DNA from: an uncultured Muribaculaceae bacterium
GTDB taxonomy: Bacteria; Bacillota_I; Bacilli_A; RF39; UBA660
Length of the DNA stretch: 63,377 nt
Direction of reading: 5' to 3'
Assembly: GCA_964486215.1 (NCBI GenBank)
Contig: CAZALI010000004.1
Location: 1 to 63,377, forward strand
Part shown: positions 119 through 61,261 of the stretch, piece by piece
Layout of the letters: the number at the start of each line of letters is the position of its first letter
Numbering within the stretch: the first letter of the stretch is position 1
Position numbers and translations under genes: made by a program
The notes under the pieces: generated by a model
What the model was told of the DNA's origin: nothing
Database searches by the model: none
What the model saw: the letters and a program-made list of their open reading frames with translations, nothing else

Positions 119-222
119 CTCGGTGACAATAGCTAGTGGGTCACACCTGTTCCCATCCCGAACACAGAAGTTAAGCCACTAAACGCTGACAATAGTGTAT
201 GCTAAGATAAGAAGTTGCCGAG
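119..222 (+). rRNA. rrf: 5S rRNA (short, about 104 nt)
   Basis: Contains the universal 5S core GTCACACCTGTTCCCATCCCGAACACAGAAGTTAAGCC. The terminal helix I pairs 5' CTCGGTGAC with 3' GTTGCCGAG. It sits directly after the 23S tail. Confidence 0.85.
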
Positions 223-259
223 ATTTTTTTATGCAATAATTTATTTTTATATAGAACAT

Positions 260-22322: not shown

Positions 22323-24373
22323 ATGAAAAGAATAAAACTTAAATTAAAAAGATTTATAAATAAAACTAAATCTTCTCTACGTAGAATAAAAGAAGAAGAA
22401 CTAATTAAAAAATATTTTAAAGAAAATACTTTATTTTTAGTATTCATACTTATAAATGTAATAAATTCTACTATGTTAAGACTATTTTGTATGCATACTG
22501 TAGAGAATTTATTATCATTTAGAGCTATTATAGGAGATGCTTTAGTAGTAGTATTAATAGGATCATTTGGTTACTTATTAAAACCCAAGAATAGACCATA
22601 CTATTACTTTGGATTTACTTGTTTCTTCACAGCTATATGTACTATAAATTCTATTTATTATACATTCTATACGTCTTTTGCTTCTCTTTCTATGTTAGGC
22701 TTAGTTCAGTATATAGGAGATGTAGGAGATGCCGTTGTAGAAAATGTTTTCCAATTAAAAGATGTTGTTTATATGTTTGCTCCTATAACAATGTTATTAG
22801 TAAACAGAAAATTAGCTCATAAAAACTATTTTAAAAAAGTAGAAGTAAAATCAACTAGAAAGAAGAAGATGTTAACGTCATTGGGTATAGCTGGAGTATT
22901 AGCTATTATCTTCTTCGCAACTATGACTTCAGTTGATATCTCTCGTATTGTAAAACAGTGGAATAAAGAAAATATTGTTATGAGATGGGGTATATATATC
23001 TATCAAGGTAATGATATAATTGCTTCACTTCAACCAAAAATAAATTCTATGTTTGGTTATGATAGAGCTAAAATGAATTTCGAAGAGTACTTTAAAGCAA
23101 AAGAAAAACCAAAATCTAATGAATATACTAATATCTTTAAAGGAAAAAATATCTTAGTAATACATGCTGAGAGTATGATGACTAATGCTATGAGTTTAAA
23201 GTTCAACAATAAGGAAGTAACTCCTAACTTGAATAAGCTAGCGTCTGGCGGAATGTTCTTCTCTAATTTTTATTCTCAAGTAAGTGTAGGTACTTCGTCT
23301 GACAGTGAATTAACTTCTACTACGTCATTACTCCCAACAAAATCAGGCACAGCTTTTGTTTCATATGCAGATAGAACTTACTCATCTAGTATTTCATTAT
23401 TAGATGACATGGACTATTATACATTCGCTATGCATGCCAATAATGGTACATTCTGGAATAGAAAAATGATGCATAAGTCTTTAGGCTATAAGAGATTATA
23501 TGATAAGGCTGATTATGAGGTAACTAAAGAAACAACTATTGGACTAGGTTTAAGTGATAAAGAATTCTTTAAACAATCTATTCCAAAACTACAAAAGATT
23601 AATGAGAAACATAAGAATTGGTATGGCCTTATGATTATGTTATCTAATCATACACCATTCTCTGATGTTGAAAAATATGGAGATTTTGATGTTAATATAA
23701 AAGAAACAGTCACAAATCCTGATGGAATAACAACAGAAAAAGTATATCCATATATGGAAGGTAGAAAACTAGGTAATTACTTCAAATCTCTTCACTATGC
23801 TGATGAAGCATTAGGTGAATTTATGACAGAGTTAGATGAAGCTGGATTACTAAAAGATACAGTAGTTGTTCTATATGGAGATCATGATGCTAGACTTCCA
23901 AGAAAAGATTATAATTTACTATATAATTATGATAAAGAAAAAGATGAATTATTAGATGAAAATGATCCAAACTACAAGAATATGATAATTATAAGTATGA
24001 ATTAGGTAGAAAAGTACCATTTATTATCTGGACTAAAGATATGAAAGATACAGATCTAAATAAAGAGTACAAGAATGTCATGGGTATGTATGATGTAGTC
24101 CCAACTCTAGGTAATATGTTTGGTTTCTACAATAAATACTCTTTAGGACATGATATTTTTGATATAAAGAGTAATAATATTGTTGTATTTCCAAGTGGAA
24201 ACTGGCTAACAAATAAAGTATATTATAATTCTCAAAAAGGAGAAGCATATCCACTCACAACAGAAGCTATATCTCAAGAAGAAATAATATCTAATACTGA
24301 ATATACTAATAAATTATTAGATGTATCAAATGATATTATAGTATTTGATTTACTTAAGGAGGAAAAGAAATGA
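22323..24373 (+). pseudogene. LtaS-family (lipoteichoic acid synthase-like sulfatase) gene interrupted by a frameshift
   Basis: ORF 22323..24005 carries 5 TM segments and the sulfatase core (ILVIHAESMM, VGTSSDSEL, LSNHTPF, VLYGDHD). The missing C-terminal part (..YELGRKVPFIIWTKDMKDTD...) continues in another frame, which is open from 23966 and includes ORF 24041..24373. Confidence 0.75.
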
Positions 24374-25023: not shown

Positions 25024-25036
25024 TCTTCTTTTTTTT
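25009..25036. terminator. Bidirectional terminator between convergent genes
   Basis: Stem AAGAAGAT / ATCTTCTT flanked by an A-run and a T-run, lying between and over the stop codons of the 24370 (+) and 25035 (-) genes. Confidence 0.6.
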
Positions 25037-27023
25037 ATGGCTCAATTGGTTCATCTTTTACACAAGTATTATTAGTCCATGTTCCACCTTGTTCTTCACA
25101 TATTTCTTGCTCTGTTTTAACAGGCGTTTCTTCTTTTTGCTCTTCTTGCTTTGGTACAATAACAGGTTCAGGATTTGTCTGTTGCGTACCAGATAGGGTA
25201 AGTGTAACAGTACCAGCTCTAGATATATCTGTACCAGCTGAAACGCTTTGTCTTACAACTGTTCCACCATTACCTACAAATACAACGCTAATACCATGGT
25301 TATTAGCATATCTTCTAGCTTGATCTTCTGTGTCACCTATAAAGTTAGGAATAACACCAGCATTCTTTTTAGCTGTATCAGAATCACTCAAGTCATAAGA
25401 ACTAGCATATGGACCTTTTCCAATAACTTTCTTTTCATATGGATTATTAATAGAGAAACTAAATGTTTTAATATTCTTAGCTTTCTTTTTACCTAAATTA
25501 GTCTTCATAGCATCCATAACATCTTGTTTACTATTTAAGTTAGGTATGTAATCATATAGATTCATTCTCATTCTACTATCATAAATCATCATACCAACAC
25601 CATCTAAATATAATTGATCAATATTTATAATATCACTATCTTCAGTAATAGTACTCTTCTTCATAATATCTTTAGCTATATTATAGAAAGATAATATTTG
25701 TTTAGTAGTTAAGTTGGTATCTAGACTATTACTTATAGTATTAAGTATTTCCATAAATGTACCAACATTTTTAATTGTTTTAGTTTTATTAGCTAGGGCT
25801 CTTACTAACTCTTGTTGATGAGCAGCTCTACCAAAATCACCATCAGCAAGTTGTTTTCTATCTCTAGCAAATACTAATGCTTCTTCACCTTTTAATGTTC
25901 TTCTACCAGGTTGAATACATACTTCACCAGTTCTACTAGAGTTATCAGTACATAACTGTTTAGGAACATCAACTTCAACTCCTCCAACAGCATCTACTAA
26001 TTTAACTAAACCTTTAAAGTTAATCTTAGCATAATAATCAATATTTATATCAAAGTATTCTTCTATAGTATTAATCATACAATCAGTACCATATCCAGCA
26101 GCATGTGTAATCTTATTTTTCTCTTTACCAGGCCAGCAAGCAATAGGTACATAAGAATCTCTAGGTATAGATAACATAGTAGCATTAAGTGTCTTAGGAT
26201 TAAACGTTAATAATATTAATGTATCTCCATTCGCAATAGCATTCTTATCTAATTTCTCAGCTGTAGAATCAATACCCATAAGTAACATTGTGAATGGTTC
26301 TTTAATAGATTTACCAGATGATTCAGTCTCACTCTTAGAAGTAGAAGACTTTAATAATTTCTTGCTCTTAGATACGATTATTCTTGTATCATCTTCAATA
26401 CTTTCAAACATAGGTATAGTATTAAACATATCTTTATAATTATCAGGTAAGAATGCTGCATCTATCTTTTCATCATATAAATCAGCAATTATAGATGTAT
26501 AATCATCATACTTAACAAGTTTATTATTATCATCTAAATCATGTTCTTTAATAATCTCTTTAGGAATAATATATCCATCAGGAGACTTTTTATTATTTAA
26601 TATAGCTATATCATAATCTTTAATATCATCAATGTCTTTAGCTTCATTCTTACTTAGTACTATTAAATCACTAGTATAAGTAACATATTTCTTATTTATA
26701 CCACTAATAAGACTATATCCATAGAATATTCCAATAGATAGAGCTATAGACATAATAGAGTATAGTATTAAGAATACGATATATAATCTTCTTTTCTTTT
26801 TATTTTTATGTTTCTTAATCTTACTACAAATTTTCTTAGTATAAAAAACACATAGTAAAGAAATAAATGCCAGTACTCCAATAACTATATATCTAATAGT
26901 ATTTTCTATATCACTAAGTAAATATATCTCATACATAGCATATAAACTACATACAACAGCAAATACTGTTAATATCTTTAACAGTAATGACAATGATTTT
27001 TTATTATAACTTTCTTTTCCCAT
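25035..27023 (-). CDS. LytR-CpsA-Psr (LCP) family glycopolymer ligase with C-terminal PASTA domain
   Basis: N-terminal TM segments and the LCP core (FTMLLMGIDS, LSIPRDSYVPI, KINFKGLVKLVDAVGGVEVDV, GEEALVFARDR). A C-terminal PASTA-like module follows (IPNFIGDTEDQARRYANNHGISVVFVGNGGTVVRQSVSAGTDISRAGTVTLTLSG). Start set at ATG 27023 after GGAGG. Confidence 0.85.
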   Translation of the reverse strand: MGKESYNKKSLSLLLKILTVFAVVCSLYAMYEIYLLSDIENTIRYIVIGVLAFISLLCVFYTKKICSKIKKHKNKKKRRLYIVFLILYSIMSIALSIGIFYGYSLISGINKKYVTYTSDLIVLSKNEAKDIDDIKDYDIAILNNKKSPDGYIIPKEIIKEHDLDDNNKLVKYDDYTSIIADLYDEKIDAAFLPDNYKDMFNTIPMFESIEDDTRIIVSKSKKLLKSSTSKSETESSGKSIKEPFTMLLMGIDSTAEKLDKNAIANGDTLILLTFNPKTLNATMLSIPRDSYVPIACWPGKEKNKITHAAGYGTDCMINTIEEYFDINIDYYAKINFKGLVKLVDAVGGVEVDVPKQLCTDNSSRTGEVCIQPGRRTLKGEEALVFARDRKQLADGDFGRAAHQQELVRALANKTKTIKNVGTFMEILNTISNSLDTNLTTKQILSFYNIAKDIMKKSTITEDSDIINIDQLYLDGVGMMIYDSRMRMNLYDYIPNLNSKQDVMDAMKTNLGKKKAKNIKTFSFSINNPYEKKVIGKGPYASSYDLSDSDTAKKNAGVIPNFIGDTEDQARRYANNHGISVVFVGNGGTVVRQSVSAGTDISRAGTVTLTLSGTQQTNPEPVIVPKQEEQKEETPVKTEQEICEEQGGTWTNNTCVKDEPIEP

Positions 27024-27181
27024 TAATATTCCTCCATGCAAACATATATATTATATCAAAATAATCTCTTATTATCAAAATTAGTATAGTTATATTATAA
27101 ATGATTATCTAATAAATTAGAATGAACAAGTGCTAATTATTAAGTATTTACAGTAAAACAAGTAAAGAAAAAGAACTATCA

Positions 27182-31264: not shown

Positions 31265-31293
31265 ATAATAACACAATATGTGTAATAAATCAA
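31265..31293 (-). promoter_or_regulatory. Candidate minus-strand promoter convergent on the small peptide gene (possible antisense RNA)
   Basis: On the minus strand: TTGATT (-35, overlapping the PASTA gene stop), a 17-bp spacer, and TGT-TATTAT (extended -10). Transcription would run through two hairpins (31252..31228 and 31204..31185) to a T-run that overlaps the peptide ORF 3' end. Confidence 0.3.
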
Positions 31294-33116
31294 CTAGCTA
31301 GTACTATTGATACTGTATCACAACTACTAACAGTACCACCATCAAATCCTGATATAAAGTCTGCTGAATCATATCCATCAGCTTTTTTACAAGTCACATT
31401 TACTTTTAATCCAGAACACTTTCTAGTTAAAGAACTTCTTAAAGCACTCGCAGCACTATTACAATTATTATATTGTTCTAATACAGAATATATTTCAGCT
31501 GGTCTAAAACTACAGCTATTACATGTTGGAGTAGGAGTAGAAGATCCTCCTCCTGAAGAATGATTATTATTACCACTATTACTACTATTAGAAGAAGGTT
31601 TATTATTAGTATCTCTTCGCTCTTCAACATTCTTGCCTTTACTTACAGTAATAGTAACAGTTGTATTTTCACTTATCTTAGAACCACTTCTAATAGATTG
31701 AGAAATAACCTTACCTTCACTAACTTCACTACTACTTCTATAAACAATACTATATTTAATATTATTATCTTTTAATATAGATATAGCTTTTTCTCTACTT
31801 AATCCAACTACATCAGGCATCTTTATTTGATTACCATTAGATATAATAACTTTAATAACATCGCCACTCTTAATTACTTCTCCTTCTTTAACAGAGAATT
31901 TAATTATTTCACCTACAGCAACTTTATCACTAAATTCATGTTCTTCTTCGTATTTAACATTATGTTTATTAGCCCATTCATAGAATTCAGCTAAATCTTT
32001 AAAATGTTTCATTCTTAGTTTACCAAGAGATACATATACTTTAATAGTATCACCACTAGTTACTATATCTCCTTTTTTCTTATCACTACCTATAACAGTA
32101 TTTTTCTTAATCTTATCATCATACTTTTCTTCAAATTCTACTTTTAAATGATTCTTAATAATCCATTTAGTAACTTCTTTAATAGATTTACCTTTTAATT
32201 CTATAACTTTAATCTTTTTACCACGACTAACAGTAACAGTAATTTCTTTATCATCAATCTTAATTTCAGTACCAGGCTTTTCAGATTGTTTCATCACAAT
32301 ACCTTTTTTGTATTTATCAGAATAATCATCTTTAAATTTATATTTAACATGATGTTCTTCTAAATAGAATTTAGCTCTGAATTTACTCATACCAACAAGC
32401 TCTCTTAAACTAACACTTTCAAAGTCTAATTCTTCTCCATAAGAGAAAGTAATCTTAATATTATCACTTCTCTTCATAGTACCTTTACGACTTTGTTCTA
32501 TAACTGTTCCTTCTTTACTTTTGCTACTCTTAAACTTAATATCTACATTTCCTAAGAAATTCTCTTCTACAAATGAAATAACTTCTTCTTTTTTCCAACC
32601 ACTCATATCAGGAATTACTATTTCTTTACTTGGACTAGGTCCATCACTAATAGCAATCTTTAAAGTATCAATATCTTTTAAAGCTTCACCTTCACGAACA
32701 CTCTGTGTAATAACAAAGTTTTCTTTAACCATATCACTATATTCATATTCTTCTTCTAATTTTATATTATTTTTCACAGACCAATTAACTACATAGTCAA
32801 TACTTTTACCACTTAAATTAATCATTCTAGTATTCTTTATACTAATAATATTATTTGTATTTAGAATATTAAAAGTATAAAAAGCTATTAATAAAAGACT
32901 ACTCATAAAGACAATACTCTTACTTTTAGCTTTAAACTTAATAGAATATACTACATAAAATAATGTGAATAATACTAAAATAAAACTATTTATAAGTTCA
33001 TTAATATCTTTATCAATAATAATATTTCCTACAAAGTAAGCTACACTTAATAAGAAAGTTATAACTAAAAATATATCCACAATTATATGTTTATTACTTT
33101 TATTTTTCTTAGGCAT
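31290..33116 (-). CDS. Membrane protein with about six PASTA domains and a Cys-rich C-terminal domain; no kinase or transpeptidase domain
   Basis: Three N-terminal TM segments. Six repeats of about 65 aa; the last is canonical PASTA (MPDVVGLSREKAISILKDNNIKYSIVYRSSSEVSEGKVISQSIRSGSKISENTTVTITVSKG). An S/N/G-rich linker is followed by a tail of about 75 aa with 7 Cys. Confidence 0.8.
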   Translation of the reverse strand: MPKKNKSNKHIIVDIFLVITFLLSVAYFVGNIIIDKDINELINSFILVLFTLFYVVYSIKFKAKSKSIVFMSSLLLIAFYTFNILNTNNIISIKNTRMINLSGKSIDYVVNWSVKNNIKLEEEYEYSDMVKENFVITQSVREGEALKDIDTLKIAISDGPSPSKEIVIPDMSGWKKEEVISFVEENFLGNVDIKFKSSKSKEGTVIEQSRKGTMKRSDNIKITFSYGEELDFESVSLRELVGMSKFRAKFYLEEHHVKYKFKDDYSDKYKKGIVMKQSEKPGTEIKIDDKEITVTVSRGKKIKVIELKGKSIKEVTKWIIKNHLKVEFEEKYDDKIKKNTVIGSDKKKGDIVTSGDTIKVYVSLGKLRMKHFKDLAEFYEWANKHNVKYEEEHEFSDKVAVGEIIKFSVKEGEVIKSGDVIKVIISNGNQIKMPDVVGLSREKAISILKDNNIKYSIVYRSSSEVSEGKVISQSIRSGSKISENTTVTITVSKGKNVEERRDTNNKPSSNSSNSGNNNHSSGGGSSTPTPTCNSCSFRPAEIYSVLEQYNNCNSAASALRSSLTRKCSGLKVNVTCKKADGYDSADFISGFDGGTVSSCDTVSIVLAS

Positions 33117-37643: not shown

Positions 37644-40600
37644 ATGGTAAAGAAAAGATTATATTGGATAGATGTTTTAAAAGGTATGGGTGCCATATTA
37701 GTATTATTAGGTCACTTAGTACCATACAATAGTATGATAAAAATATACATATATTCTTTTCATGTACCATTATTTTTCTTTATATCTGGATATGTATTTA
37801 AATATGAGAAGAAAATAGATTACTTTTTTTATAAGAAAGTAAATAGATTATTAATACCATATATAAAGTATTCAATACTTTCTTTTTTTGCTAGTTATTT
37901 TGTAGAAGATGTAGTAGCATCTAAAAGAGAAATCTTATATCATATTTTCTTTGTAGGTGGAACTAACTACTTTAATACATCACTATGGTTCTTAGTTATA
38001 TTATTCTTTACTTTAATAATTGCTGAAATAGTAGGCCTCATAGTAAATAAATTAAAGATTAAGACTAATCAATTAATAAATACTCTAATACTATTATGTT
38101 TATTAGTAGTAGGTTTGTTGTTCATTAAATTTAATATAACTTTACCATTTGGTATTCAGATATTACCTCATTCTTTATTAATATTCTATTTAGGTTACTT
38201 ATATAAGAAATCAACCAAGTTACCAAAATTATTATCTAAACTACTAAAGAAGATTACTATTATGAAATATGCTATTATACCTGTTGGAATATTAGCTATA
38301 GTACTAGGTCAAATTAATGGTAATATAGCTATGTCAATGAGTGAATATAATAATTACTTTATATATTTATTTGTAGCTTTAGTAAATATTATGATATATA
38401 TTTTGATTGCTAAAAAGATTAATAGACAAAAAGTATTAGAAAAATTAGGTGAGTTATCTCTATTTATGATATGTACTCAGAGAATACTAATAAAATTTAT
38501 TTATTATTTCCAAAATAAATTTGACTTAACTTTACTACAATCACCTAATATTCTCATTGACATTGGTATAACTATACTTATACTTATGTTATACTTAAGT
38601 TATGGAAAGGCCAAGGAAGTGATTAAAATGAAAAAGAAATCATGGATTTTGACTATGTTATTAATATTAATTAGTTTTAATATAACTTGTGTAAACGCCA
38701 AGTCTACTGGTTGGGAAGTTATAGATGGGAAATACTACTATTATGATTCTCAAACTAATGCTTACTTAACTGGATGGCAGACAATAGATGGACTAAAATA
38801 CTACTTTGATCCAACAACAAGAGTAAGATTACAAGGAATACATGAAGTAGATGGTAAGAAGTATTTCTTTGGAGTAACAAAAGGTAAAGTAATGTATGGT
38901 TGGATTAACTATGACAATAAAAAGTATTATACAGATCCAACTACTGGAGTATTATCTAGTGGAGTAACCAAAGTAGGAAGTAAAAACTATTTCTTTGGCA
39001 TAAATACAAATAAATTAATGTATGGATTAATAAATAATCATGATGGAGAAAAATATTATAGTAATAAAGATGGTGTTCTTCAAACGGGATGGCAGAAGAT
39101 AAGTGGAAAAACTTATTATTTTGATAAGACAACTTATAAAGCTAAGAGTGGTTGGCAGACAATAGATAATTTAAAATACTACTTTGATCCAACGACAAAA
39201 GTAAGACTACAAGGAATACATGAAGTAGATGGTAAGAAGTATTTCTTTGGAGTAACAAAAGGTAAAGTAATGTATGGTTGGATTAACTATGACAATAAAA
39301 AGTATTATACAGATCCAACTACTGGAGTATTATCTAGTGGAGTAACCAAAGTAGGAAGTAAAAACTATTTCTTTGGCATAAATACAAATAAATTAATGTA
39401 TGGATTAATAAATAATCATGATGGAGAAAAATATTATAGTAATAAAGATGGAATTCTTCAAAAAGGCTGGCAAACTGTAAGCGGAAAAACTTATTATTTT
39501 AATACTGTAACATACAAAGCTGTTAAAGGTTGGCAAACTATAAATAATTTAAATTATTACTTTGATCAAACGACAAGAGTAAGACTACAAGGAATACATG
39601 AAGTAGATGGTAAGAAATATTTCTTTGGAGTAAATACTGGTAAAGTAATGTATGGTTGGATTAACTATGATAATAAAAAGTACTATACAGATCCAATGTC
39701 AGGAGTACTCGCAAGTGGCGTAACTAAAGTAGATATTAATAGTTATTTCTTTGGCATAAATACAAATAAATTAATGTATGGACTAATAAATAATCATGAT
39801 GGAGAAAAATATTATAGTAATAAAGATGGCGCTCTTCAAACTGGAATGCTTGAAATAAATAGTAAATGGTATTATTTTGATAAAACTAATTATAAAGCTT
39901 TAAGTGGAATTCAAATTATTGATAATGCTGAATACTATTTTGATCCAACTACTAAAGTAAGAGCTAAATACATAACTAAAGTAGATGGAAAGTATTACTT
40001 CTATGGAATAAAGTATGGTAAAAAACAATATGGATTAATATCATACGATGGTGAGTATTATTATGCTGATCCCCAAACAGGTGAACTACAAACAGGTTGG
40101 GTAACTATAGATGATAAATTATATTACTATTTACCAGATAGTAAGAAAAGAGCTAAAGGTGTTCACAAAGTAGATGGAAAATATTATTTCTTTGCGATCA
40201 CAACTGGATTAGTTAGAAAAGGCTGGATAAATTATAATAATAAAACATATTATGCTGATCCCCAAACAGGTGTCTTAGTAACTACAAATACTACTATAGA
40301 TGGTGTATATTATAAATTTAATAGTAATGGAACTATTATTTCTCAATGGATAAAGGATTCGCAAGGAACAAGATATTTATTCGCAAATGGTAAATATGCT
40401 GATGACTGGACTCATATTGAAGGAGGAAAACACTTCTTTAATTCACTTGGTTATTTAATTGATAAAAATGCTAGAAAAGTAATAGACGTTTCTGCTCATA
40501 ATGGAACTATTGACTGGGATAAAGTAAAATCTAAAGGTGATATAGATGCTGTAATCTTAAGAATCGCAGCTGGTTGTGAAAGTGAAGACACTAAATTAAA

Positions 40601-41051
40601 ATACAATATAGAAAACTTAAAGAGATTAGGCATTCCATATGGAGTATACATCTATAGTTATGCAGAAAATGAAAGAGAAGGTAAACTATATGCTCAGTTT
40701 ACTAAAAAAACATTAGACAAATATTCTATGAATCCAACATATGGAGTATATTTCGATCTAGAAAATAATGGTATAACTAATTATCTAAAAGCTAGTGATT
40801 ATGATAAGATAGTTAAAGGATTTATGAACTATATGGCTGGTACCAAATATAAAAGTGTTACTAGAATATATACATATAAATCATTTGCTGAAACAAAACT
40901 AACATCTAGTTATACAAAACAATTTATATACTGGATGGCTCAGTATTATCATTACTGTACTTATAATGGCAGCTTTAAAGCATGGCAATATAGTAGTACA
41001 GAAAAACTTCCAGGTATATCAGGAAATGTTGATATGAGTGTTTGGTATTAA
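37644..41051 (+). CDS. Single ORF joining an Acyl_transf_3 membrane O-acyltransferase (aa 1-328) to a signal-peptide-bearing cell-wall-binding-repeat GH25 muramidase (aa 329-1135)
   Basis: N-terminus: WIDVLKGMGAILVLLGH...FHVPLFFFISGY and about 10 TM segments. Internal ATG at 38628, preceded by AGGAAG, opens MKKKSWILTMLLILISFNITCVNA-KS. Next come about 25 CW_binding-type 20-aa repeats (GWQTIDGLKYYFD...). The GH25 core follows (VIDVSAHNGTIDWDKV, YGVYIYSYA, WMAQYY, WQYSSTEKLPGISGNVDMSVW). Confidence 0.85.
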   Translation: MVKKRLYWIDVLKGMGAILVLLGHLVPYNSMIKIYIYSFHVPLFFFISGYVFKYEKKIDYFFYKKVNRLLIPYIKYSILSFFASYFVEDVVASKREILYHIFFVGGTNYFNTSLWFLVILFFTLIIAEIVGLIVNKLKIKTNQLINTLILLCLLVVGLLFIKFNITLPFGIQILPHSLLIFYLGYLYKKSTKLPKLLSKLLKKITIMKYAIIPVGILAIVLGQINGNIAMSMSEYNNYFIYLFVALVNIMIYILIAKKINRQKVLEKLGELSLFMICTQRILIKFIYYFQNKFDLTLLQSPNILIDIGITILILMLYLSYGKAKEVIKMKKKSWILTMLLILISFNITCVNAKSTGWEVIDGKYYYYDSQTNAYLTGWQTIDGLKYYFDPTTRVRLQGIHEVDGKKYFFGVTKGKVMYGWINYDNKKYYTDPTTGVLSSGVTKVGSKNYFFGINTNKLMYGLINNHDGEKYYSNKDGVLQTGWQKISGKTYYFDKTTYKAKSGWQTIDNLKYYFDPTTKVRLQGIHEVDGKKYFFGVTKGKVMYGWINYDNKKYYTDPTTGVLSSGVTKVGSKNYFFGINTNKLMYGLINNHDGEKYYSNKDGILQKGWQTVSGKTYYFNTVTYKAVKGWQTINNLNYYFDQTTRVRLQGIHEVDGKKYFFGVNTGKVMYGWINYDNKKYYTDPMSGVLASGVTKVDINSYFFGINTNKLMYGLINNHDGEKYYSNKDGALQTGMLEINSKWYYFDKTNYKALSGIQIIDNAEYYFDPTTKVRAKYITKVDGKYYFYGIKYGKKQYGLISYDGEYYYADPQTGELQTGWVTIDDKLYYYLPDSKKRAKGVHKVDGKYYFFAITTGLVRKGWINYNNKTYYADPQTGVLVTTNTTIDGVYYKFNSNGTIISQWIKDSQGTRYLFANGKYADDWTHIEGGKHFFNSLGYLIDKNARKVIDVSAHNGTIDWDKVKSKGDIDAVILRIAAGCESEDTKLKYNIENLKRLGIPYGVYIYSYAENEREGKLYAQFTKKTLDKYSMNPTYGVYFDLENNGITNYLKASDYDKIVKGFMNYMAGTKYKSVTRIYTYKSFAETKLTSSYTKQFIYWMAQYYHYCTYNGSFKAWQYSSTEKLPGISGNVDMSVWY
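38772..39905 (+). repeat. Three tandem 378-bp (126-aa) coding super-repeats
   Basis: Units start at 38772, 39150 and 39528. Copies 1 and 2 share a stretch of about 250 nt with a single visible mismatch; copy 3 is slightly more diverged. Confidence 0.9.
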
Positions 41052-41135: not shown

Positions 41136-42428
41136 ATGAAGAAATTAAATATAACTTTTTGTAGTTTTCCAGACTTTTCTAATAATGCTAAAGCATTATA
41201 TGAATATATGAGTAATAGGTATGGAAACAAGCTAAACTATACTTGGATAGTATATAATAAAGATTCTGTAGATAAACTAAATAAGCAAGGAATAAAAGCT
41301 ATTTTAATTGGTACAGATGAATTTAAAAACTATGTTAAAAAAACTGATGTTTTCTTTACTACTCAAGGTAACTTAGATGGCGATAAAACAAATAAATCTA
41401 TTTATGTAGAACTATGGCATGGAATGGGTCCTAAAATGAATGGCTATTTCAGTAAAAAGCCAAGTAAAGAAGATATAGTTGGTTTTGATCATATGCGAAA
41501 AATATTTGACTATGTAATCGCACCTAATGATTTTTGGAGAGTAGTTTATAGTTCTAAGTTATATGTAGAATACTCTAGAGTATTGCCACTAGGTATGCCT
41601 AAATTAAACTATTTTAAGTACTCTAATGGTATAGAAGGATTAAATAAAGTCTTAAAGATGGATACAACTAAATTTAAAAAGAGAATTATCTATATGCCAA
41701 CTTTTAAGAAAGGTTTTCATCATAAAGATGCTTTAAGCATAAATACTAGTAACATATTTGATTTTGAAAAATATAATGAACAAGACTTAATAGATTATTT
41801 AGAAAAGAATAATTATTTACTATGTATTAAGAGACATCCAGGAGATAAGACAAAGTATACAAAAGTTGAATCAAATAATATTAAGAATATTGATGATAAA
41901 GAATTATTAAAAGAAGACTTGAGTATAAATGAAATATTAAATGCTTTTGATATGTTAATAACAGACTATTCATCTGTAGGAGTAGAATTCTTATTCTTAG
42001 ATAGACCAGTATTATATGCTGTAAATGACATGGATGAGTATTTAGATAATAGAGGAATACTTTTCTCTAATAAAAGCTTTTGGTTAAATGGCCCCCAAGT
42101 AAAGAAAATAGATAAATTCTTTAAAGAAACAGATAAATTATTAAATGATAATAAGTATTATCGTACTGAAAGAAGTATGGCTAGAAAGCTTTTCTTTGGA
42201 GATATAAAAGATGGTGGTTGTGACAAAATATGTGACTATTTCTTTAATGAGAATGGTGAATTAAATCCTAATATAAAACAATATGTTTGTACAGAGACAG
42301 TTCTAAAAGAACAAGTAATAAGAGATAAAGCTGCTATCAAAGATTTAAGATCACAATTAAAGGAAATAGTTGAATCAAAAGGATGGCAATTCTTAGAAAA
42401 ACTAAGAAGTATTAAAAGAAAATTATAA
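41136..42428 (+). CDS. CDP-alditol:poly(alditol phosphate) transferase (TagB/TagF family)
   Basis: Glyphos_transf hallmarks LWHGMGPK and ITDYSSVGVEFLFLDRPVLY. Confidence 0.85.
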   Translation: MKKLNITFCSFPDFSNNAKALYEYMSNRYGNKLNYTWIVYNKDSVDKLNKQGIKAILIGTDEFKNYVKKTDVFFTTQGNLDGDKTNKSIYVELWHGMGPKMNGYFSKKPSKEDIVGFDHMRKIFDYVIAPNDFWRVVYSSKLYVEYSRVLPLGMPKLNYFKYSNGIEGLNKVLKMDTTKFKKRIIYMPTFKKGFHHKDALSINTSNIFDFEKYNEQDLIDYLEKNNYLLCIKRHPGDKTKYTKVESNNIKNIDDKELLKEDLSINEILNAFDMLITDYSSVGVEFLFLDRPVLYAVNDMDEYLDNRGILFSNKSFWLNGPQVKKIDKFFKETDKLLNDNKYYRTERSMARKLFFGDIKDGGCDKICDYFFNENGELNPNIKQYVCTETVLKEQVIRDKAAIKDLRSQLKEIVESKGWQFLEKLRSIKRKL

Positions 42429-42441
42429 ATGAGGTGTTAAT

Positions 42442-43116
42442 ATGGCAAATATTGCAGTTATTCCCATAGGCGGAGTTGGTAAACGAATGCAAAATGAAAT
42501 ACCAAAACAATTTATAACTATCAATGATAAACCATTATATATGTATACACTAGAAAAAATTCAAAATAATAATAAGATAGATAAAATAATAATAGCTTGT
42601 TTAAAAGACTACAAAGATAAAGTAATAAATGAATGTAAAGAAAAGAATATCTCTAAAGTAATGGCCGTTGTATCCGATGGAGAAACACAACTAGGTTCAC
42701 TATTTAATTGCTTTGAATTCTTAAATGGTCAAATAAAAGATGATGATAAAATACTTATTCATGTTGGAAATAGACCTAATATAACAGGAGAATTAATAGA
42801 CAGATGTCTTGACTCATACGACGAAGTAGGCCCTCTAGCCGCAACTATCCCAGCCGTAGAAGTAATGATTAATAAAGATACAAGAGAAATCATTCCTAGA
42901 AATGATATTGTCCGTATCCAAACACCACAAGTATTTGCTTTTAAAGATATTAAAGAATTAATTCCACGCAAGAATGAGTATAAATTTATTGCTAATACAA
43001 TGTGTGATTTATTTATTAAACTAGATAAAAGAATAAGCTTTATAGATGGAGACTTAATGAATTTTAAAATTACTTATCCAGAAGACTTAGAGTTATTTAA
43101 GAAAATTATTAGTTAA
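42442..43116 (+). CDS. IspD/TarI-family cytidylyltransferase (copy 1)
   Basis: IAVIPIGGVGKRMQNEIPKQF N-terminal signature; length about 224 aa. Confidence 0.8.
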   Translation: MANIAVIPIGGVGKRMQNEIPKQFITINDKPLYMYTLEKIQNNNKIDKIIIACLKDYKDKVINECKEKNISKVMAVVSDGETQLGSLFNCFEFLNGQIKDDDKILIHVGNRPNITGELIDRCLDSYDEVGPLAATIPAVEVMINKDTREIIPRNDIVRIQTPQVFAFKDIKELIPRKNEYKFIANTMCDLFIKLDKRISFIDGDLMNFKITYPEDLELFKKIIS

Positions 43117-54761: not shown

Positions 54762-54773
54762 TTAGTCTTTTTC
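54746..54773. terminator. Bidirectional terminator shared by convergent flippase and licD genes
   Basis: 11-bp perfect palindrome AAAAAGACTAA-TTAA-TTAGTCTTTTT. Both stop codons (54759..54761 and 54762..54764) lie in its loop and stem. Confidence 0.7.
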
Positions 54774-55607
54774 TTTTGGAAACTTTATTTCTAATACTGG
54801 ATGACAAACTCTTTTATCTTTAGGAGGTAATTTCATATAATCACCATAATAATGTCTTAGTATTTCGTCATATCTCTTAGGTATAAAAACTTTTAAACTT
54901 TCAAAATCATGTTCAATAGGATCAGTTAAATACTCTTTATCAATAATTTCTTTAAATAGATATGTTCCTGCATAAGAAGCTATCATTTTAGTATCTTTAT
55001 TATTATCTTTTCTCATCAATTTAGAAAGTCTTTTCTTTAATCTTTCACCATTATAGAAAACAGATAATATACTTATTATTTTAATAATAGTATTCTTTTT
55101 CTTATCTTCCATATAATTTAGATGATTATATTTCTTTAATAAAATCATTTTTAAACAATAAATATGAAAATATCTTAGTTTAGAAAAGAATGAATCATCT
55201 TTAATATTATCAAAAGCAAATACGTCAATCCATATACCAGCTCTACTATCATCTTTAGAAGAAGTAACCTCTAAGTACTTTGAATCCTTTCTTTTTAATT
55301 TAGAGAAAAGCATACCACATTCTTTATCAGTTTCTATAGACTCAAAAAAGAATCTCTTTTTATCTAATTCTTTAGCTTGTACTTTTATGAATTTATCATA
55401 ATTATCTCTAGTAAGACATACATCAACATCATCATCCCAAGGAATAAATCCATTATGTCTAACAGCTCCAATTAATGATCCACCAATAAGATAGTATTCA
55501 ATTTTATTCTTTCTACAAATTCTATCAAATTCTTTTAGAATTTCTAGTTCTACATCATGAAGTTTTTTTAATTGTTTATCAGTTAAAGTAATTGACTTTT
55601 TTCCCAT
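54762..55607 (-). CDS. LicD-family phosphotransferase
   Basis: YYLIGGSLIGAVRHNGFIPWDDDVDV and WIDVFAFD motifs of LicD/fukutin-type nucleotidyl/phosphotransferases. Confidence 0.85.
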   Translation of the reverse strand: MGKKSITLTDKQLKKLHDVELEILKEFDRICRKNKIEYYLIGGSLIGAVRHNGFIPWDDDVDVCLTRDNYDKFIKVQAKELDKKRFFFESIETDKECGMLFSKLKRKDSKYLEVTSSKDDSRAGIWIDVFAFDNIKDDSFFSKLRYFHIYCLKMILLKKYNHLNYMEDKKKNTIIKIISILSVFYNGERLKKRLSKLMRKDNNKDTKMIASYAGTYLFKEIIDKEYLTDPIEHDFESLKVFIPKRYDEILRHYYGDYMKLPPKDKRVCHPVLEIKFPKEKD

Positions 55608-55678
55608 ATTATCACCAAAATGATTATAACATTATTGAATACTATTGTCTAATAAAGCTTTATGTTAAAATTTAGTTA

Positions 55679-55687
55679 TGCTATAAT
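55679..55687 (+). promoter_or_regulatory. Extended -10 promoter (TGCTATAAT) of the cytidylyltransferase-SDR-araD operon
   Basis: TGnTATAAT, 26 nt upstream of ATG 55713 (SD AGGAGG). Confidence 0.5.
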
Positions 55688-55712
55688 GAAATTGAAATAC
55701 TAGGAGGTTTTT

Positions 55713-56432
55713 ATGAAAAAAGTTGCAATTATCATAGCTGGTGGTGTAGGAGCTCGTATGGAGCAATCTATACCTAAACAGTTTTTAAATGTAGGCGAAA
55801 AACCTATAATTATCTATACATTGGAGGCTTTCCAAAGACATCCAAATATTGATTCAATAATTGTAGTATGCCTAGATGGGTGGCATGAAATATTAAAATC
55901 TTATGCTAAACAATTTAATATTACTAAATTAGAATCAGTAGTATCAGGTGGAGAAAATGGACAAGGCTCTATTAAAAATGGCTTAGATGAAGCTAAGAGA
56001 TTAGGCTATAAAAAGAATGACATAGTACTAATACATGATGCTATAAGACCTATGGTCGATAATGAAACATTATCTGCTAACATTGCTACAGCAGAAAAAT
56101 ATGGTAATGCTACTGTAGTAGTTCCAGTCACAACAGTAGTCCTAAAGAAAGGTAGACATGAAGAATATTCAGAAAAAGTTGTTAATAGAGATGGCCTATA
56201 TTTAACACAAACACCTCAATCATTTAAATTAGGAGAGATATTAAGTGCTCATAAAGAAGCTAAAGAAAAAGGTATAACAAACTCCGTAGCTAGTTGTGAT
56301 TTATATACTAAGTTAGGTAGAAAAGTTTATTATTCACCTGGATCTGAAACTAATATAAAATTAACTAGACCTGGTGATATTCTAATATTTAAGGCTTTAC
56401 TAAATACTAAAAAGCCAGATTGGATGTCTTAA
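55713..56432 (+). CDS. IspD/TarI-family pentose/pentitol-phosphate cytidylyltransferase (copy 2)
   Basis: VAIIIAGGVGARMEQSIPKQF, IHDAIRP, TQTPQSF, which are classic IspD/TarI blocks. Confidence 0.85.
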   Translation: MKKVAIIIAGGVGARMEQSIPKQFLNVGEKPIIIYTLEAFQRHPNIDSIIVVCLDGWHEILKSYAKQFNITKLESVVSGGENGQGSIKNGLDEAKRLGYKKNDIVLIHDAIRPMVDNETLSANIATAEKYGNATVVVPVTTVVLKKGRHEEYSEKVVNRDGLYLTQTPQSFKLGEILSAHKEAKEKGITNSVASCDLYTKLGRKVYYSPGSETNIKLTRPGDILIFKALLNTKKPDWMS

Positions 56433-56433
56433 A

Positions 56434-57468
56434 ATGAATTTAACATTATATAAACAAGGTATTAAAAAAGTTTTAAAGTATAATTCTTTTGAAAAATTAA
56501 AGAACAAATCAATATTAATACTAGGAGCTAATGGTTTAATAGGTTCCGGAATAATAGATGTATTAGCATACTTAAATTCTGAATTGAACTATAATATTAA
56601 GATAATATGTTCTGTTAGAAATAAAAATAAGATATTAGAGAGATTCAATTCATATAATAATTTAAAAATAGTAGAACAAGATTTATTAAAAGATTTTACT
56701 ATAACAGAAAAAGTTGATTATGTAATAAATGCTGCTAGTAATGCTCATCCATTAGCTTTTTCTACAGATCCAGTTGGTACTATAAGTGCTAATTTCATTG
56801 GTACAAAAAACATCTTAGAATATTGTAAAAGTAATAAAGTAAAAAGAATGCTATTTATTTCTTCAGGAGAAATATATGGACAGGGTAGTGATGACATAAA
56901 AGCTTTTAAAGAAGACTATAGTGGTAAGATAAATTCAACAGATTTTAGAAGTTGTTATCCAATAGGTAAACTAGCTGCTGAATCACTATGTGCCTCTTAT
57001 TTGGAAGAATATGGAGTAAAAACTGTTATTGCTAGATTATGTCATACTTATGGACCAACTCAACAAGAAAACGATAGTAGAGCATCACAACAATTTATAA
57101 AGAATGTTTTAAATGATAAAGATATTGTTTTAAAGAGTCCAGGCGTACAAGTAAGATCATATTGCTATGTATTAGATTCTGTTACGGGAATTTTAAGAAT
57201 ACTATTAGATGGTAAAAGTGGTGAAGCCTATAATGTTGCTAATAATGCTTCAATTCTTTCTATCAGAGAATTTGCTGAAACTGTCGCAGCAACTAAAAAT
57301 AGAAAAGTAATTTTTGATATTCCAAGCGAAAGTGAAAAAAGAGGATACAATAAAGTCACTAGATCAGTTTTAGATGGAACTAAACTAGAAAAACTTGGTT
57401 GGAAACCAATATATGGATATAAAGATGGAATAAAAGAAACAATAGGAGTATTAGAAAATGTTAAATAA
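56434..57468 (+). CDS. Extended-SDR NAD(P)-dependent reductase/epimerase
   Basis: GANGLIGSG Rossmann motif and catalytic YPIGK (YxxxK). Starts 1 nt after the stop of the cytidylyltransferase gene. Confidence 0.8.
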
Positions 57469-58147
57469 ATTAAAAAAAGAAGTTTATGAAGCTAATCTAG
57501 AATTAGTAAAACAAGATTTAGTTGTATATACTTGGGGAAATGTATCTGCTATAGATAGAAAATCTAACTTAGTAGTAATAAAACCAAGTGGAGTAGACTA
57601 TGCTACTATGAAAGTAGATGATATGGTTGTAGTAGACTTAGATGGAAATATTGTTGAAGGAAAATTAAGACCATCTTCAGATACTCCAACTCATCTAGAA
57701 TTATATAAACATTTTAAAGATATTGGTGCTGTAGTACATACACACTCTAGTTGGGCAACAGCTTGGGCTCAATCAGGTAGAGGCATTCCACCTTATGGTA
57801 CTACACATGCTGACACATTCTATGGAACTATACCATGTACTAGAGTATTAACTAAAGATGAAGTAAATAAAGATTATGAATTAAATACTGGTAAAGTAAT
57901 AGTAGAAACATTTAAAAATATAGATGAAAATGCTATTCCTGGAGTACTATGTAAAAGCCATGGACCATTTGTCTGGGGAAAAGATGCTAAAACAGCTGTC
58001 TATAATGCTAAAGTATTAGAAGAAGTAGCTAAAATGGCTTATCATACAGAAATATTAAATAAAGATATTAAAGAAGTTAATCAATACTTATTAGATAAAC
58101 ATTATTTAAGAAAACATGGTAAAAATGCTTATTACGGTCAAAAATAA
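57458..58147 (+). CDS. araD: L-ribulose-5-phosphate 4-epimerase (AraD-type class II aldolase fold)
   Basis: Near full-length collinearity with E. coli AraD as recalled: [62 protein letters not shown]. 11-nt overlap with the SDR gene. Confidence 0.85.
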
Positions 58148-58152
58148 GAGAG

Positions 58153-58178
58153 AAAAGAAGATTTATCTTCTTTTTTTG
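58153..58178 (+). terminator. Rho-independent terminator
   Basis: Stem AAAGAAGA / TCTTCTTT with loop TTTA and a T-run. Confidence 0.7.
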
Positions 58179-58261
58179 TGGAAAACAAATTAAATATTTG
58201 ATACAATGTTATTAAGAATAGATGAGGTAAGAGATATCAATAGGTGGGAACGGTGAATAAT

Positions 58262-59450: not shown

Positions 59451-59747
59451 ATGGAGTTTATTTGTTTGTTTTTCCCAACTCTTATAGCTATGGGAAAAGA
59501 TATTAATACAAAGAATATTTATAAAGTAATATATGATTATGCTATGTATAATTTAAGTATTAATTTTATATCATTTTTAATAGTTAGAGTAGTTACTCAG
59601 TCACAATTAGTTATAGATAGTAACTTATGGACTATGAAATTTACTCTTAAATATATAATACTTAGTTCATTTATAGCTCTTATATTGCCAAAAGTAATAG
59701 AATTCTTAAAGAAGAATTTCTCTATATCTATAAAGAGGTCAAAATGA
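59451..59747 (+). CDS. Small 3-TM membrane protein (unknown), translationally coupled to the LtaS-family gene
   Basis: 98 aa. ATGA overlap with the next gene. Confidence 0.65.
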   Translation: MEFICLFFPTLIAMGKDINTKNIYKVIYDYAMYNLSINFISFLIVRVVTQSQLVIDSNLWTMKFTLKYIILSSFIALILPKVIEFLKKNFSISIKRSK

Positions 59748-61261
59748 TTAAGAAAATTATTAAGAATTTCTTTGTATTCTTATATATATTTATAATTACT
59801 TTAATATATTTTTCTACTAAATGGGCTCTTCATACTTTTGAATTTCTAAATTTTGATGAAATAGTTTTTCAATTAACTTCACCATTATCTGGAACTGAGA
59901 GTACTATTATGACTAGTTTTTATAGTAATAGTTTATTCCCAAGTATAGTATTTTCTGTTATATGCTTTATATTGATAAAGACGCTTTATAGTTATTTAAG
60001 TACTGAGTATCTTAATATAAATATAATGATTAGAAATAAGAAATTTAATTTTAATATTAAGACTATTATTCTAAAGATAATTATAACTACTATAATTATT
60101 ATTAGTGGACTATGTATTATTAATAATAGCTGTACTAAACTACATTTACCAAAGTATCTTAAATCTTTATTTGAAAGTTCTAAGTTTATTGAAGAACACT
60201 ATGTAGATCCAAAAGAAGTAAAAATAACTTTCCCAGATAAAAAGAGAAATTTAGTATTTATCTTCGCAGAATCATTTGAAAGTAGTTACTTTCCAGTTAG
60301 TTTAGGTGGAAGTAATAATAAAAATCCTATGGAACCATTAAATACTTTAACTGAAGAAAATTTAAATTTTTCTGATAATGAAAAGTTTGGTGGTTCACAG
60401 CAATTAGCAGGTACAACATGGACAACAGGAGCTATAGTAGCTTATACTACAGGTCTACCAGTAAAAATAGATCCTACTCTTACCAATGGCGCTGATAGAA
60501 GTAATGTCTTAAATGGAGCTACTGCTTTAGGACATATTCTAGAAAAGAATGGTTATAATGAAACATTTATGATGGGATCAGATAGTTCTTTTGGTAGTAG
60601 AAAAGGTTATTTAAAAAAACATGGTAATTATTACATCTATGATGAAAAAGAAGCTAAAAAGTTAAAGAAAGTACCAAAAGATTATCATGTATGGTGGGGT
60701 ATAGAAGATAAGAAATTATTTGAAATAGCTAAAGATGAATTAACAAGATTAGATAATGAAAGTAAACCATTTAACTTTTCTATATTGACTACTGATACTC
60801 ATTTCCCAGGTGGTTTTATAAATAAAGAATGTACTGGATATCATTATGAAGATGACTATTCTAATTCAGTATATTGTAGTGCTAAAGAAATAAGAGACTT
60901 TATTGAATGGATAAAGAAACAATCATTCTATGAAAATACAACTATTATTTTAGTTGGAGATCATCTTAGTATGGAAAAGGATTATCTACCATTAGATCAA
61001 AAGAGAAGAGTTTATAATCTTATAATTAATTCTCCTATAGAAGCAAAACAAACAAAGAATAGAGAATTCTCATCTCTAGATATGTTCCCAACTACTTTAG
61101 CTAGTATGAATGTAAAGATAGAAGGAGATAGATTAGGTCTAGGTACCAATTTATATTCCGATGAAAAAACATTGATAGAACAATATGGATATGATAAAGT
61201 TAATAGTGAATTAGAAAAAAGAAGTATATTTTATGATAATAAATTTATTTATAATAAATAA
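59744..61261 (+). CDS. LtaS/phosphoglycerol-transferase family sulfatase (intact paralog)
   Basis: N-terminal TM segments and the sulfatase core VFIFAESFES, GTTWTTGAIVAYTTG, LTTDTHFP, ILVGDHL. Confidence 0.8.
   Translation: MIKKIIKNFFVFLYIFIITLIYFSTKWALHTFEFLNFDEIVFQLTSPLSGTESTIMTSFYSNSLFPSIVFSVICFILIKTLYSYLSTEYLNINIMIRNKKFNFNIKTIILKIIITTIIIISGLCIINNSCTKLHLPKYLKSLFESSKFIEEHYVDPKEVKITFPDKKRNLVFIFAESFESSYFPVSLGGSNNKNPMEPLNTLTEENLNFSDNEKFGGSQQLAGTTWTTGAIVAYTTGLPVKIDPTLTNGADRSNVLNGATALGHILEKNGYNETFMMGSDSSFGSRKGYLKKHGNYYIYDEKEAKKLKKVPKDYHVWWGIEDKKLFEIAKDELTRLDNESKPFNFSILTTDTHFPGGFINKECTGYHYEDDYSNSVYCSAKEIRDFIEWIKKQSFYENTTIILVGDHLSMEKDYLPLDQKRRVYNLIINSPIEAKQTKNREFSSLDMFPTTLASMNVKIEGDRLGLGTNLYSDEKTLIEQYGYDKVNSELEKRSIFYDNKFIYNK

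Follow-up and report, generated by a model that had tools for sequence, protein, structure and literature searches.

Alditol-phosphate units are major antigens, phage receptors and targets of lectins and antibodies on Gram-positive surfaces and capsules. To our knowledge, the characterised routes to cytidine diphosphate (CDP)-activated pentitols all begin from D-ribulose-5-phosphate or D-xylulose-5-phosphate. CDP-D-ribitol, a donor for wall polymers, is made by TarI/TarJ and Bcs1 with a cytidylyltransferase (CTase) of the IspD/TarI family and a reductase, which is either a medium-chain alcohol dehydrogenase (ADH) or a classical short-chain dehydrogenase/reductase (SDR) fused to the CTase and which reduces free D-ribulose-5-phosphate before cytidylylation; the pentitol is installed by TagF/TarL-type or LicD/fukutin-type transferases. 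AbpA/AbpB of Streptococcus pneumoniae 17F reportedly lead from D-xylulose-5-phosphate via CDP-D-xylulose to CDP-D-arabinitol. HS5.17 of Campylobacter jejuni reduces CDP-6-D-fructose, the product of the IspD-type transferase HS5.18, to CDP-6-D-glucitol, and the two enzymes are related to pneumococcal Mnp1/Mnp2 (Ghosh et al., PMC10918830). In both of these pairs, from C. jejuni HS:5 and from S. pneumoniae 35A, where the product is CDP-D-mannitol, an IspD-family CTase acts first on the ketose phosphate, and an extended SDR with an N-terminal helix then reduces the CDP-ketose at C2 with NADPH. Here, we describe a related locus with a third gene. In a stretch of 63,377 nucleotides from an uncultured Muribaculaceae bacterium (contig CAZALI010000004.1 of assembly GCA_964486215.1; the whole stretch is termed the window), three genes on the + strand, at positions 55713-58147, encode a CTase, an extended SDR and AraD, the L-ribulose-5-phosphate 4-epimerase (together, the trio; Table 1).

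The genes of the trio are translationally coupled, as had been recognised in the original prediction for this DNA. The stop codon TAA of the CTase gene (56430-56432) is followed one base on by the SDR start codon ATG at 56434, and the AraD gene begins within the SDR gene, an overlap of 11 nt, with AGGAG located 8 nt ahead of the AraD ATG. Our favoured reading, to which we give a probability of about 0.55, is that AraD serves the pair with an unusual precursor. AraD would epimerise D-xylulose-5-phosphate from the pentose phosphate pathway at C4 to L-ribulose-5-phosphate, and the CTase would join this pentulose phosphate with cytidine triphosphate to give CDP-L-ribulose. The SDR would then reduce the CDP-ketose at C2 with NADPH, an order backed by homology to HS5.17 and by the pattern of Mnp2 and AbpB. 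Depending on the hydride face, the product would be CDP-L-ribitol, which carries D-ribitol-1-phosphate, the enantiomer of ordinary ribitol phosphate, or CDP-L-arabinitol. Finally, the divergently encoded LicD protein would move the pentitol phosphate onto the repeat unit of a wall polysaccharide, in a locus that also holds genes for a Wzx-like flippase, a GT4 glycosyltransferase and a DUF2142 protein.

D-xylulose-5-phosphate is a universal intermediate. Since it is always present, and L-ribulose-5-phosphate otherwise requires AraA and AraB, the only compound that a lone AraD would add is L-ribulose-5-phosphate. D-xylulose and L-ribulose are the same at C3, so that an AbpB-like enzyme would need to accommodate only the C4 epimer. 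In otherwise similar cassettes, AraD may act as a serotype-like switch, its presence giving pentitols derived from L-ribulose and its absence those derived from D-xylulose.

The third gene encodes a canonical AraD located outside arabinose catabolism. Residues 1-228 of its 229 align with E. coli AraD (1jdi; E = 1.6e-85, 62% identity), which bears out the near-collinearity noted beforehand. It scores above the NCBIfam cutoffs of NF006047 (392.7 bits, cutoff 257) and NF009003 (382.5 bits, cutoff 331) and falls 0.3 bit short of the TIGR00760 equivalog cutoff (388.8 versus 389.1). All 13 metal, acid/base, T116 and phosphate-pocket residues were found to be the same as in E. coli AraD, both in the window protein and in every trio AraD; in the E. 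coli enzyme, we take these to be the Zn ligands D76, H95, H97 and H171, the acid/base residues D120 and Y229, T116, and the phosphate pocket formed by N28, K42, S44, G45, S74 and S75. The intact phosphomonoester pocket suggests that AraD acts on a free pentulose phosphate, before the CTase, and not on a CDP-sugar.

The lack of araA and araB in the vicinity, also noted in the original prediction, extends to the whole window (tblastn and family scans) and to the 80 loci with a CTase-SDR pair described below. A contrast set of 80 metagenomic AraD relatives (65-69% identity) revealed araB adjoining the AraD gene in 57 cases, counted at a match of more than 200 residues, and araA in 36; further short contigs carry a truncated araB. 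The operon order in these catabolic relatives is araR-araA-araB-araD-mutarotase. When metagenomes were scanned with AraD as the query, mostly catabolic AraDs from common human gut species were recovered, and the closest relatives, P0123 (88%) and P0134 (75%), both lie within trios.

Two further AraD genes were found in other settings. An orphan AraD (73% identical) at positions 5001-5690 of L088/L089 is located in a housekeeping context, with no ara operon or polysaccharide locus around it; its host, a gut Firmicute, is very common, with entries in 104 blocks of the collection. This AraD could be a source in trans of L-ribulose-5-phosphate for AraD-free cassettes. At L085 (5001-5693), an AraD with 77% identity lies in a polysaccharide locus with a Wzy-like protein, glycosyltransferases, a hexapeptide acetyltransferase and a UDP-GlcNAc 2-epimerase, and no CTase-SDR pair was seen within 6.9 kb.

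The second gene product is, judging from its sequence and its predicted fold, a CDP-ketose reductase of the HS5.17 kind, the class to which Mnp2 and AbpB belong. Pfam and NCBIfam yielded only generic matches to the epimerase/dehydratase superfamily, all far under equivalog cutoffs. The best sequence match in the PDB is HS5.17 (8v4g/8v4h, CDP-6-D-fructose reductase; E = 7e-51, 32-33% identity), followed by UXS1, a UDP-xylose synthase (E = 2e-35). The AlphaFold model (pLDDT 91, pTM 0.92) has an atypical N-terminal helix, residues 4-14, before the first strand, and its top Foldseek matches are again 8v4g/8v4h (TM 0.85-0.91). An assignment as a nucleotide-hexose epimerase or dehydratase, which had been named as the finding that would overturn the proposal, was not borne out, the nearest protein by sequence and fold being HS5.17.

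The published active-site residues of HS5.17 were mapped onto the SDR through the alignment. The motifs GANGLIGSG (residues 31-39) and YPIGK (Y175-P-I-G-K179) are present, and the latter supplies the conserved catalytic YxxxK residues Y175 and K179. Residues that bind NADPH or its phosphate are kept (HS5.17 R56/K60 to R62/K66, R208 to R216), and those of the CDP site are mostly kept (R164 to R172, R233 to R241, Y295 to Y305, T227 to S235, E140 to E146), with changes at two positions contacting cytosine (Asp212 to Q220, Phe226 to K234). The glucitol contacts are altered (T195/Q196 to C203/H204, M139 to G145), and the position of the dehydratase Asp/Glu-Lys pair is occupied by Gly145/Glu146, which is reductase-like. 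Conservation of the CDP, NADPH and catalytic residues alongside changed sugar contacts is as expected for the same chemistry on a different ketose. On the basis of the alignment and the model, the SDR is predicted to be an NADPH-dependent CDP-pentulose 2-reductase.

The first gene product matches PF01128 over profile positions 2-220 of 221 (144.3 bits, cutoff 27), in agreement with its earlier description as IspD/TarI-type. The N-terminal nucleotide-binding loop GxGxR(M), followed by IPKQF, is present as AGGVGARMEQSIPKQF at residues 9-24. The protein remains under the cutoff for true IspD (TIGR00453, 177.1 versus 181.3), under that of NF001186 (174.4 versus 253) and under that for ribitol-5-phosphate CTases (NF001183, 160 versus 166), and its nearest solved relatives are TarI and IspD (E = 1e-32 to 1e-27). 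It is predicted to be a pentulose-5-phosphate cytidylyltransferase yielding CDP-pentulose.

The survey of gene neighbourhoods called for in the original prediction revealed that the trio recurs. The SDR alignment was scanned against one genome per species, giving 80 loci whose neighbours were assessed by tblastn; the nearest SDR relatives in this genome collection come from uncultured gut Clostridia. Of the 80 loci, 77 have an IspD-type CTase gene immediately before the SDR gene, and eight have AraD directly downstream on the same strand (L009, L013, L020, L041, L044, L057, L072 and L073). L061 (8035-12659) is a variant with one GT2 glycosyltransferase gene between SDR and AraD; just upstream of it, an open reading frame (ORF) resembling a thiamine-diphosphate enzyme was seen. 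With the further trios at L084, L087, L172, L175, L176 and L177, the total is at least 15, spread over Clostridia, Lachnospiraceae, Oscillospiraceae and Gastranaerophilales, with hosts from several Bacillota families. Chance does not account for the adjacency, given that at least 15 independent loci share this gene order. Among six close metagenomic relatives of the SDR, AraD is found downstream in four, namely P0009 (L175) and P0016 (L177), whose SDRs are both 60% identical to that of the window, P0032 (L172, 58%) and P0058 (L176, 54%), and is missing downstream in P0003 (L170, 65%) and P0008 (L171, 63%).

Neighbour-joining trees, which are distance-based and without support values, placed the AraD-linked SDRs and CTases scattered among AraD-free ones, and monophyly of the AraD-linked pairs was thus rejected. 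Monophyly of the trio AraDs was likewise rejected; they are polyphyletic and interleaved with catabolic AraDs. It thus seems that the association was put together or retained several times over, a pattern that speaks for selection acting on the AraD activity itself. Ala14 of the CTase (GxG-A-RM) was considered as a signature of AraD linkage, being present in 10/10 GTDB-derived trios versus 20% of the others, and was discarded because L087 has Lys and L172 has Gln at this position.

The window cassette is most closely matched by L084 (996-3456, a contig of Logan SRR13978217), where CTase and AraD are 88% and LicD is 64% identical. At only 43% identity, the SDR of L084 is a member of another SDR clade (motifs SSFEVYG and LSRVFGP) and has lost the equivalent of the NADPH residue Arg216; this is a module swap that could alter the C2 stereochemistry or the cofactor. 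With the SDR exchanged while CTase and AraD are kept, the parts of the cassette behave as exchangeable modules, as is usual for capsule and O-antigen loci. In Konateibacter massiliensis (L058, 9311-9970), the gene between CTase and SDR encodes a degenerate AraD-like protein (37% identity) with substitutions at the phosphate-pocket residues and at two His metal ligands; it is probably either a non-functional remnant or has taken on a new role. Konateibacter and Clostridiaceae isolates from the mouse gut are the nearest cultured relatives encountered.

Several points weigh against L-ribulose-5-phosphate as the intended precursor. The substrate of the CTase, the direction in which AraD runs and the pentitol that is formed are all inferred, the last two as in the original prediction. 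AraD is patchy among close relatives, with L170, L171 and L001 being without it. No residue signature parts AraD-linked from AraD-free CTases or SDRs, with no column of the SDR alignment exceeding a frequency difference of 0.6 between the two groups, and a specificity switch is thus not visible in the sequences. The equilibrium constant of AraD is near 1, so that both epimers would coexist and the CTase would have to discriminate between them. A capsular polysaccharide (CPS) cassette of Parabacteroides distasonis, compared below, has ribulose-phosphate 3-epimerase (Rpe) in the third slot, an enzyme that interconverts central metabolites only, which makes the boosting of supply a real alternative logic. 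In addition, an ara operon without araD elsewhere in the genome is possible, our view being that of the 63-kb window.

If the pair instead followed the AbpA/AbpB pattern, D-xylulose-5-phosphate would be converted to CDP-D-arabinitol (or CDP-xylitol), and AraD would be catabolic, either as the sole AraD of a split arabinose regulon or by channelling arabinose carbon into the polymer. That the pair alone is the common form and that close relatives do without AraD fit this account, as do the reported use of D-xylulose-5-phosphate by AbpA/AbpB, the missing specificity signature, trio AraDs that cannot be distinguished from catabolic ones, and the Rpe cassette, which shows that supply epimerases for central pentulose phosphates exist. 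We nevertheless consider it unlikely, given that L-ribulose-5-phosphate needs AraA and AraB, which neither the window nor any of the 80 pair loci encodes, and that the catabolic ara operons of relatives hold their own araD. A split arabinose regulon, raised in the original prediction and possible as judged from the 63-kb window, would have to arise independently in at least five lineages, each time directly after the SDR gene, and D-xylulose-5-phosphate is limiting in no known metabolism. Less probable again is that the CTase and SDR are promiscuous for C4 epimers, with AraD only shifting the precursor pool towards a mixture or an altered ratio of pentitol phosphates and with AraD-free cassettes possibly using an AraD encoded elsewhere. 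The patchy distribution of AraD in the absence of sequence signatures, the orphan AraD of a common gut Firmicute (L088/L089) and the swapped SDR of L084 beside a CTase and AraD at 88%, which implies that modules combine freely, are compatible with this idea; against it, HS5.18/HS5.17 are reported to be specific for fructose-6-phosphate and CDP-fructose among the substrates tested (PMC10918830).

It is very improbable that AraD is functionally unrelated to the pair or acts on another substrate such as CDP-pentulose. Nothing direct speaks for this, the degenerate AraD-like gene of L058 illustrating only that the slot tolerates a non-canonical protein, and it is countered by the gene overlap with translational coupling, by the recurrence in at least 15 loci and by the fully kept phosphate pocket, as would suit a free phosphomonoester but not a CDP diester. 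Scarcely credible, finally, is a cassette for an ordinary nucleotide sugar, with the SDR acting as a nucleotide-hexose 4-epimerase, dehydratase or decarboxylase. The generic Pfam and NCBIfam matches point in this direction, but the best match in sequence and fold is a CDP-ketose reductase, Gly145/Glu146 occupy the dehydratase pair position as in reductases, and the SDR is obligately paired with a CTase of the IspD type, which handles alditol or ketose phosphates, and not with a sugar-1-phosphate nucleotidyltransferase.

Returning to AraD as a supplier of L-ribulose-5-phosphate, we tentatively extend this reading, with a confidence just short of even odds, to gut Clostridia and Gastranaerophilales in general: a dedicated AraD would make L-ribulose-5-phosphate as the precursor of an undescribed CDP-L-ribitol or CDP-L-arabinitol, and epimerases (AraD, Rpe) together with swappable C2 reductases would bring about combinatorial diversification of pentitol phosphates. 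If true, this would widen the set of activated alditols to L-configured pentitols, give the textbook catabolic enzyme AraD an anabolic role and explain why the polysaccharide loci of abundant gut bacteria contain a class of unannotated "L-ribulose-5-phosphate 4-epimerase" genes. The ribitol phosphate of dystroglycan and of every known teichoic acid would have its mirror image in D-ribitol-1-phosphate.

The LicD protein, which the original prediction had correctly placed divergent from the trio, matches PF04991 over the full profile (positions 1-227 of 227; 148 bits, cutoff 22.6) and is predicted to be a CDP-pentitol:glycan pentitol-phosphotransferase. Next to the CTase-SDR pair, LicD homologues occur most often (29 of the 80 loci), followed by TagF-like proteins (13 of 80); LicD homologues also flank the closest relatives L084, L170, L171, L172 and L177. 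Clustering of ORFs within 4 kb on either side of the pair revealed LicD, TagF-like proteins, glycosyltransferases, an ABC-2 permease, DegT, housekeeping proteins and AraD as recurrent; within the same distance, no recurrent precursor-supply gene other than AraD was found.

Regarding expression signals, the extended -10 element proposed for the trio was confirmed, and its absence from the list of the consensus scan is explained by the failing -35 hexamer. Downstream, a hairpin is present, with 6/200 shuffles folding equally well, and a scan for G+C-rich terminators found none there; it is possibly a leaky intrinsic terminator. With the hairpin being weak and a G+C-rich terminator lacking, transcription may continue into the acyltransferase gene at 58244. 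Neither a riboswitch nor a tRNA was detected around the operon in Rfam and tRNA scans. The view of the trio as a self-contained unit is plausible but not secure: the hairpin is weak, the locus encodes a second IspD-like CTase, and there are close relatives without AraD (L170, L171 and L001). Each computational check called for in the original prediction gave a favourable outcome. As a whole, the interpretation put forward in the original prediction is partly supported.

The window matches the ENA metagenome scaffold XIEF21-1_SAMN15829918. It has a G+C content of about 27% and opens at the tail of an rRNA operon, followed in its early part by the housekeeping genes tsaEBD, pcrA, ligA and gatAB. 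According to family scans, a locus for a cell-wall glycopolymer spans about 33 kb to 62 kb of the window and encodes GT2 and GT4 glycosyltransferases, a TagG/TagH-like ABC exporter, a Wzx-like flippase, a DUF2142 protein, acyltransferase-3 proteins, an LtaS-like protein and a diacylglycerol (DAG) kinase. The second IspD-like CTase gene lies directly 3' of the TagF-like gene and 5' of the TagG/TagH-like exporter, with no adjoining reductase; together with the TagF-like gene, it may represent a second point at which CDP-alditol is made or used, its tie to the trio being unproven. A second IspD paralogue beside the CTase-SDR pair also occurs in L073 and L051. Upstream of the glycopolymer locus, a LytR-CpsA-Psr (LCP) ligase is fused to a PASTA domain, and near it a protein with five PASTA repeats has no match to a kinase or transpeptidase domain. 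A fusion protein of unusual architecture combines an acyltransferase-3 membrane domain, many cell-wall/choline-binding repeats and a C-terminal GH25 muramidase. One of two LtaS/phosphoglycerol-transferase-like proteins is encoded between the trio and the DAG kinase. In L084, the DAG kinase gene directly follows AraD; the window has an insertion of about 3 kb there, comprising an acyltransferase-3 gene, a small ORF and the LtaS-like gene.

Table 1. Positions of the trio, its signals and other features in the window. Values after family accessions are E-values.
Feature	Position	Strand	Size, match or remark
5S rRNA gene	119-223		72.5 bits
LtaS/phosphoglycerol-transferase-like protein	22323-24005		sulfatase domain
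LCP ligase fused to PASTA domain	25035-27041	-	
Protein with five PASTA repeats	31290-33116	-	608 residues
Acyltransferase-3/repeat/GH25 fusion protein	37644-41051		1135 residues
TagF-like CDP-alditol phosphotransferase	41136-42428	+	PF04464, 6.9e-47
Second IspD-like cytidylyltransferase	42442-43116	+	PF01128, 1.2e-27; 33% identical to the trio CTase
LicD-family phosphotransferase, divergent	54762-55607	-	281 residues; PF04991, 5.9e-43
Divergent promoter-like site for licD	55623-55651	-	TAGACA-17-TATAAT with upstream TG; 11/12 matches, best in 5 kb scanned
Extended -10 element of the trio	55679-55687	+	TGcTATAAT; read from sequence; poor -35
Ribosome-binding site	55702-55707	+	AGGAGG, 5 nt ahead of the CTase start codon
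IspD/TarI-family cytidylyltransferase (CTase)	55713-56432	+	239 residues; PF01128, 6e-42
Extended SDR	56434-57468	+	344 residues; PF01370 Epimerase, 5.5e-47
L-ribulose-5-phosphate 4-epimerase (AraD)	57458-58147	+	229 residues; PF00596 Aldolase_II, 1.7e-54
Weak A/U-rich hairpin ending in a U run	58150-58177	+	dG -10.3 kcal/mol; z -2.0
LtaS/phosphoglycerol-transferase-like protein	59744-61261		sulfatase domain

Compared with the systems described at the outset, the trio shares the IspD-family CTase and the extended SDR with HS5.18/HS5.17 and Mnp1/Mnp2. These CDP-hexitol pairs, the closest characterised relatives compared, were missing from the known routes listed in the original prediction. Both hexitol pairs consist of two genes, use fructose-6-phosphate and lack an epimerase, whereas the window trio has changed sugar contacts relative to HS5.17 (C203/H204 and G145) and a pentulose-phosphate epimerase joined to its operon. 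A literature search of incomplete coverage found no AraD in CDP-alditol pathways or in capsule or teichoic acid loci, and no CDP-L-ribulose, CDP-L-arabinitol or polymers of L-arabinitol phosphate. AbpA/AbpB, likened here by description only, follow the same logic at the pentulose level, AbpA being of about 240 residues and thus close to the window CTase in length; they form a two-gene system without AraD that draws on a central metabolite, in contrast to the window cassette with its third gene. Relative to TarI/TarJ and Bcs1, the order of steps would be reversed, the window reductase being an extended SDR with a CDP site, and no ADH-type TarJ was found among the scanned window ORFs of at least 120 residues. 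Of the epimerases of araBAD, ulaF and sgbE, E. coli AraD has 62% identity to the window AraD and the same catalytic and binding residues; unlike the araBAD, ula and sgb systems, the window AraD is without an isomerase or kinase and is coupled to a biosynthetic SDR in a wall-polysaccharide locus.

The counterpart with a different third gene is the uncharacterised CPS cassette of P. distasonis (NZ_OY725754.1, L173 5238-7640), in which an IspD/TarI CTase, an SDR and Rpe, with a 4-nt overlap, are followed by two TagF-like transferases. Its SDR and CTase are 34-39% identical to the pair proteins compared, with 36% for the SDR versus that of the window, and Rpe, which interconverts D-ribulose-5-phosphate and D-xylulose-5-phosphate, was seen only in this distant cassette, outside the 80 closer loci. 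This arrangement implies that the third slot can hold a pentulose-5-phosphate epimerase. Set against all of these systems, the chemistry of each step proposed for the window trio is known, whereas neither the combination nor the predicted product was found described in the literature searched.

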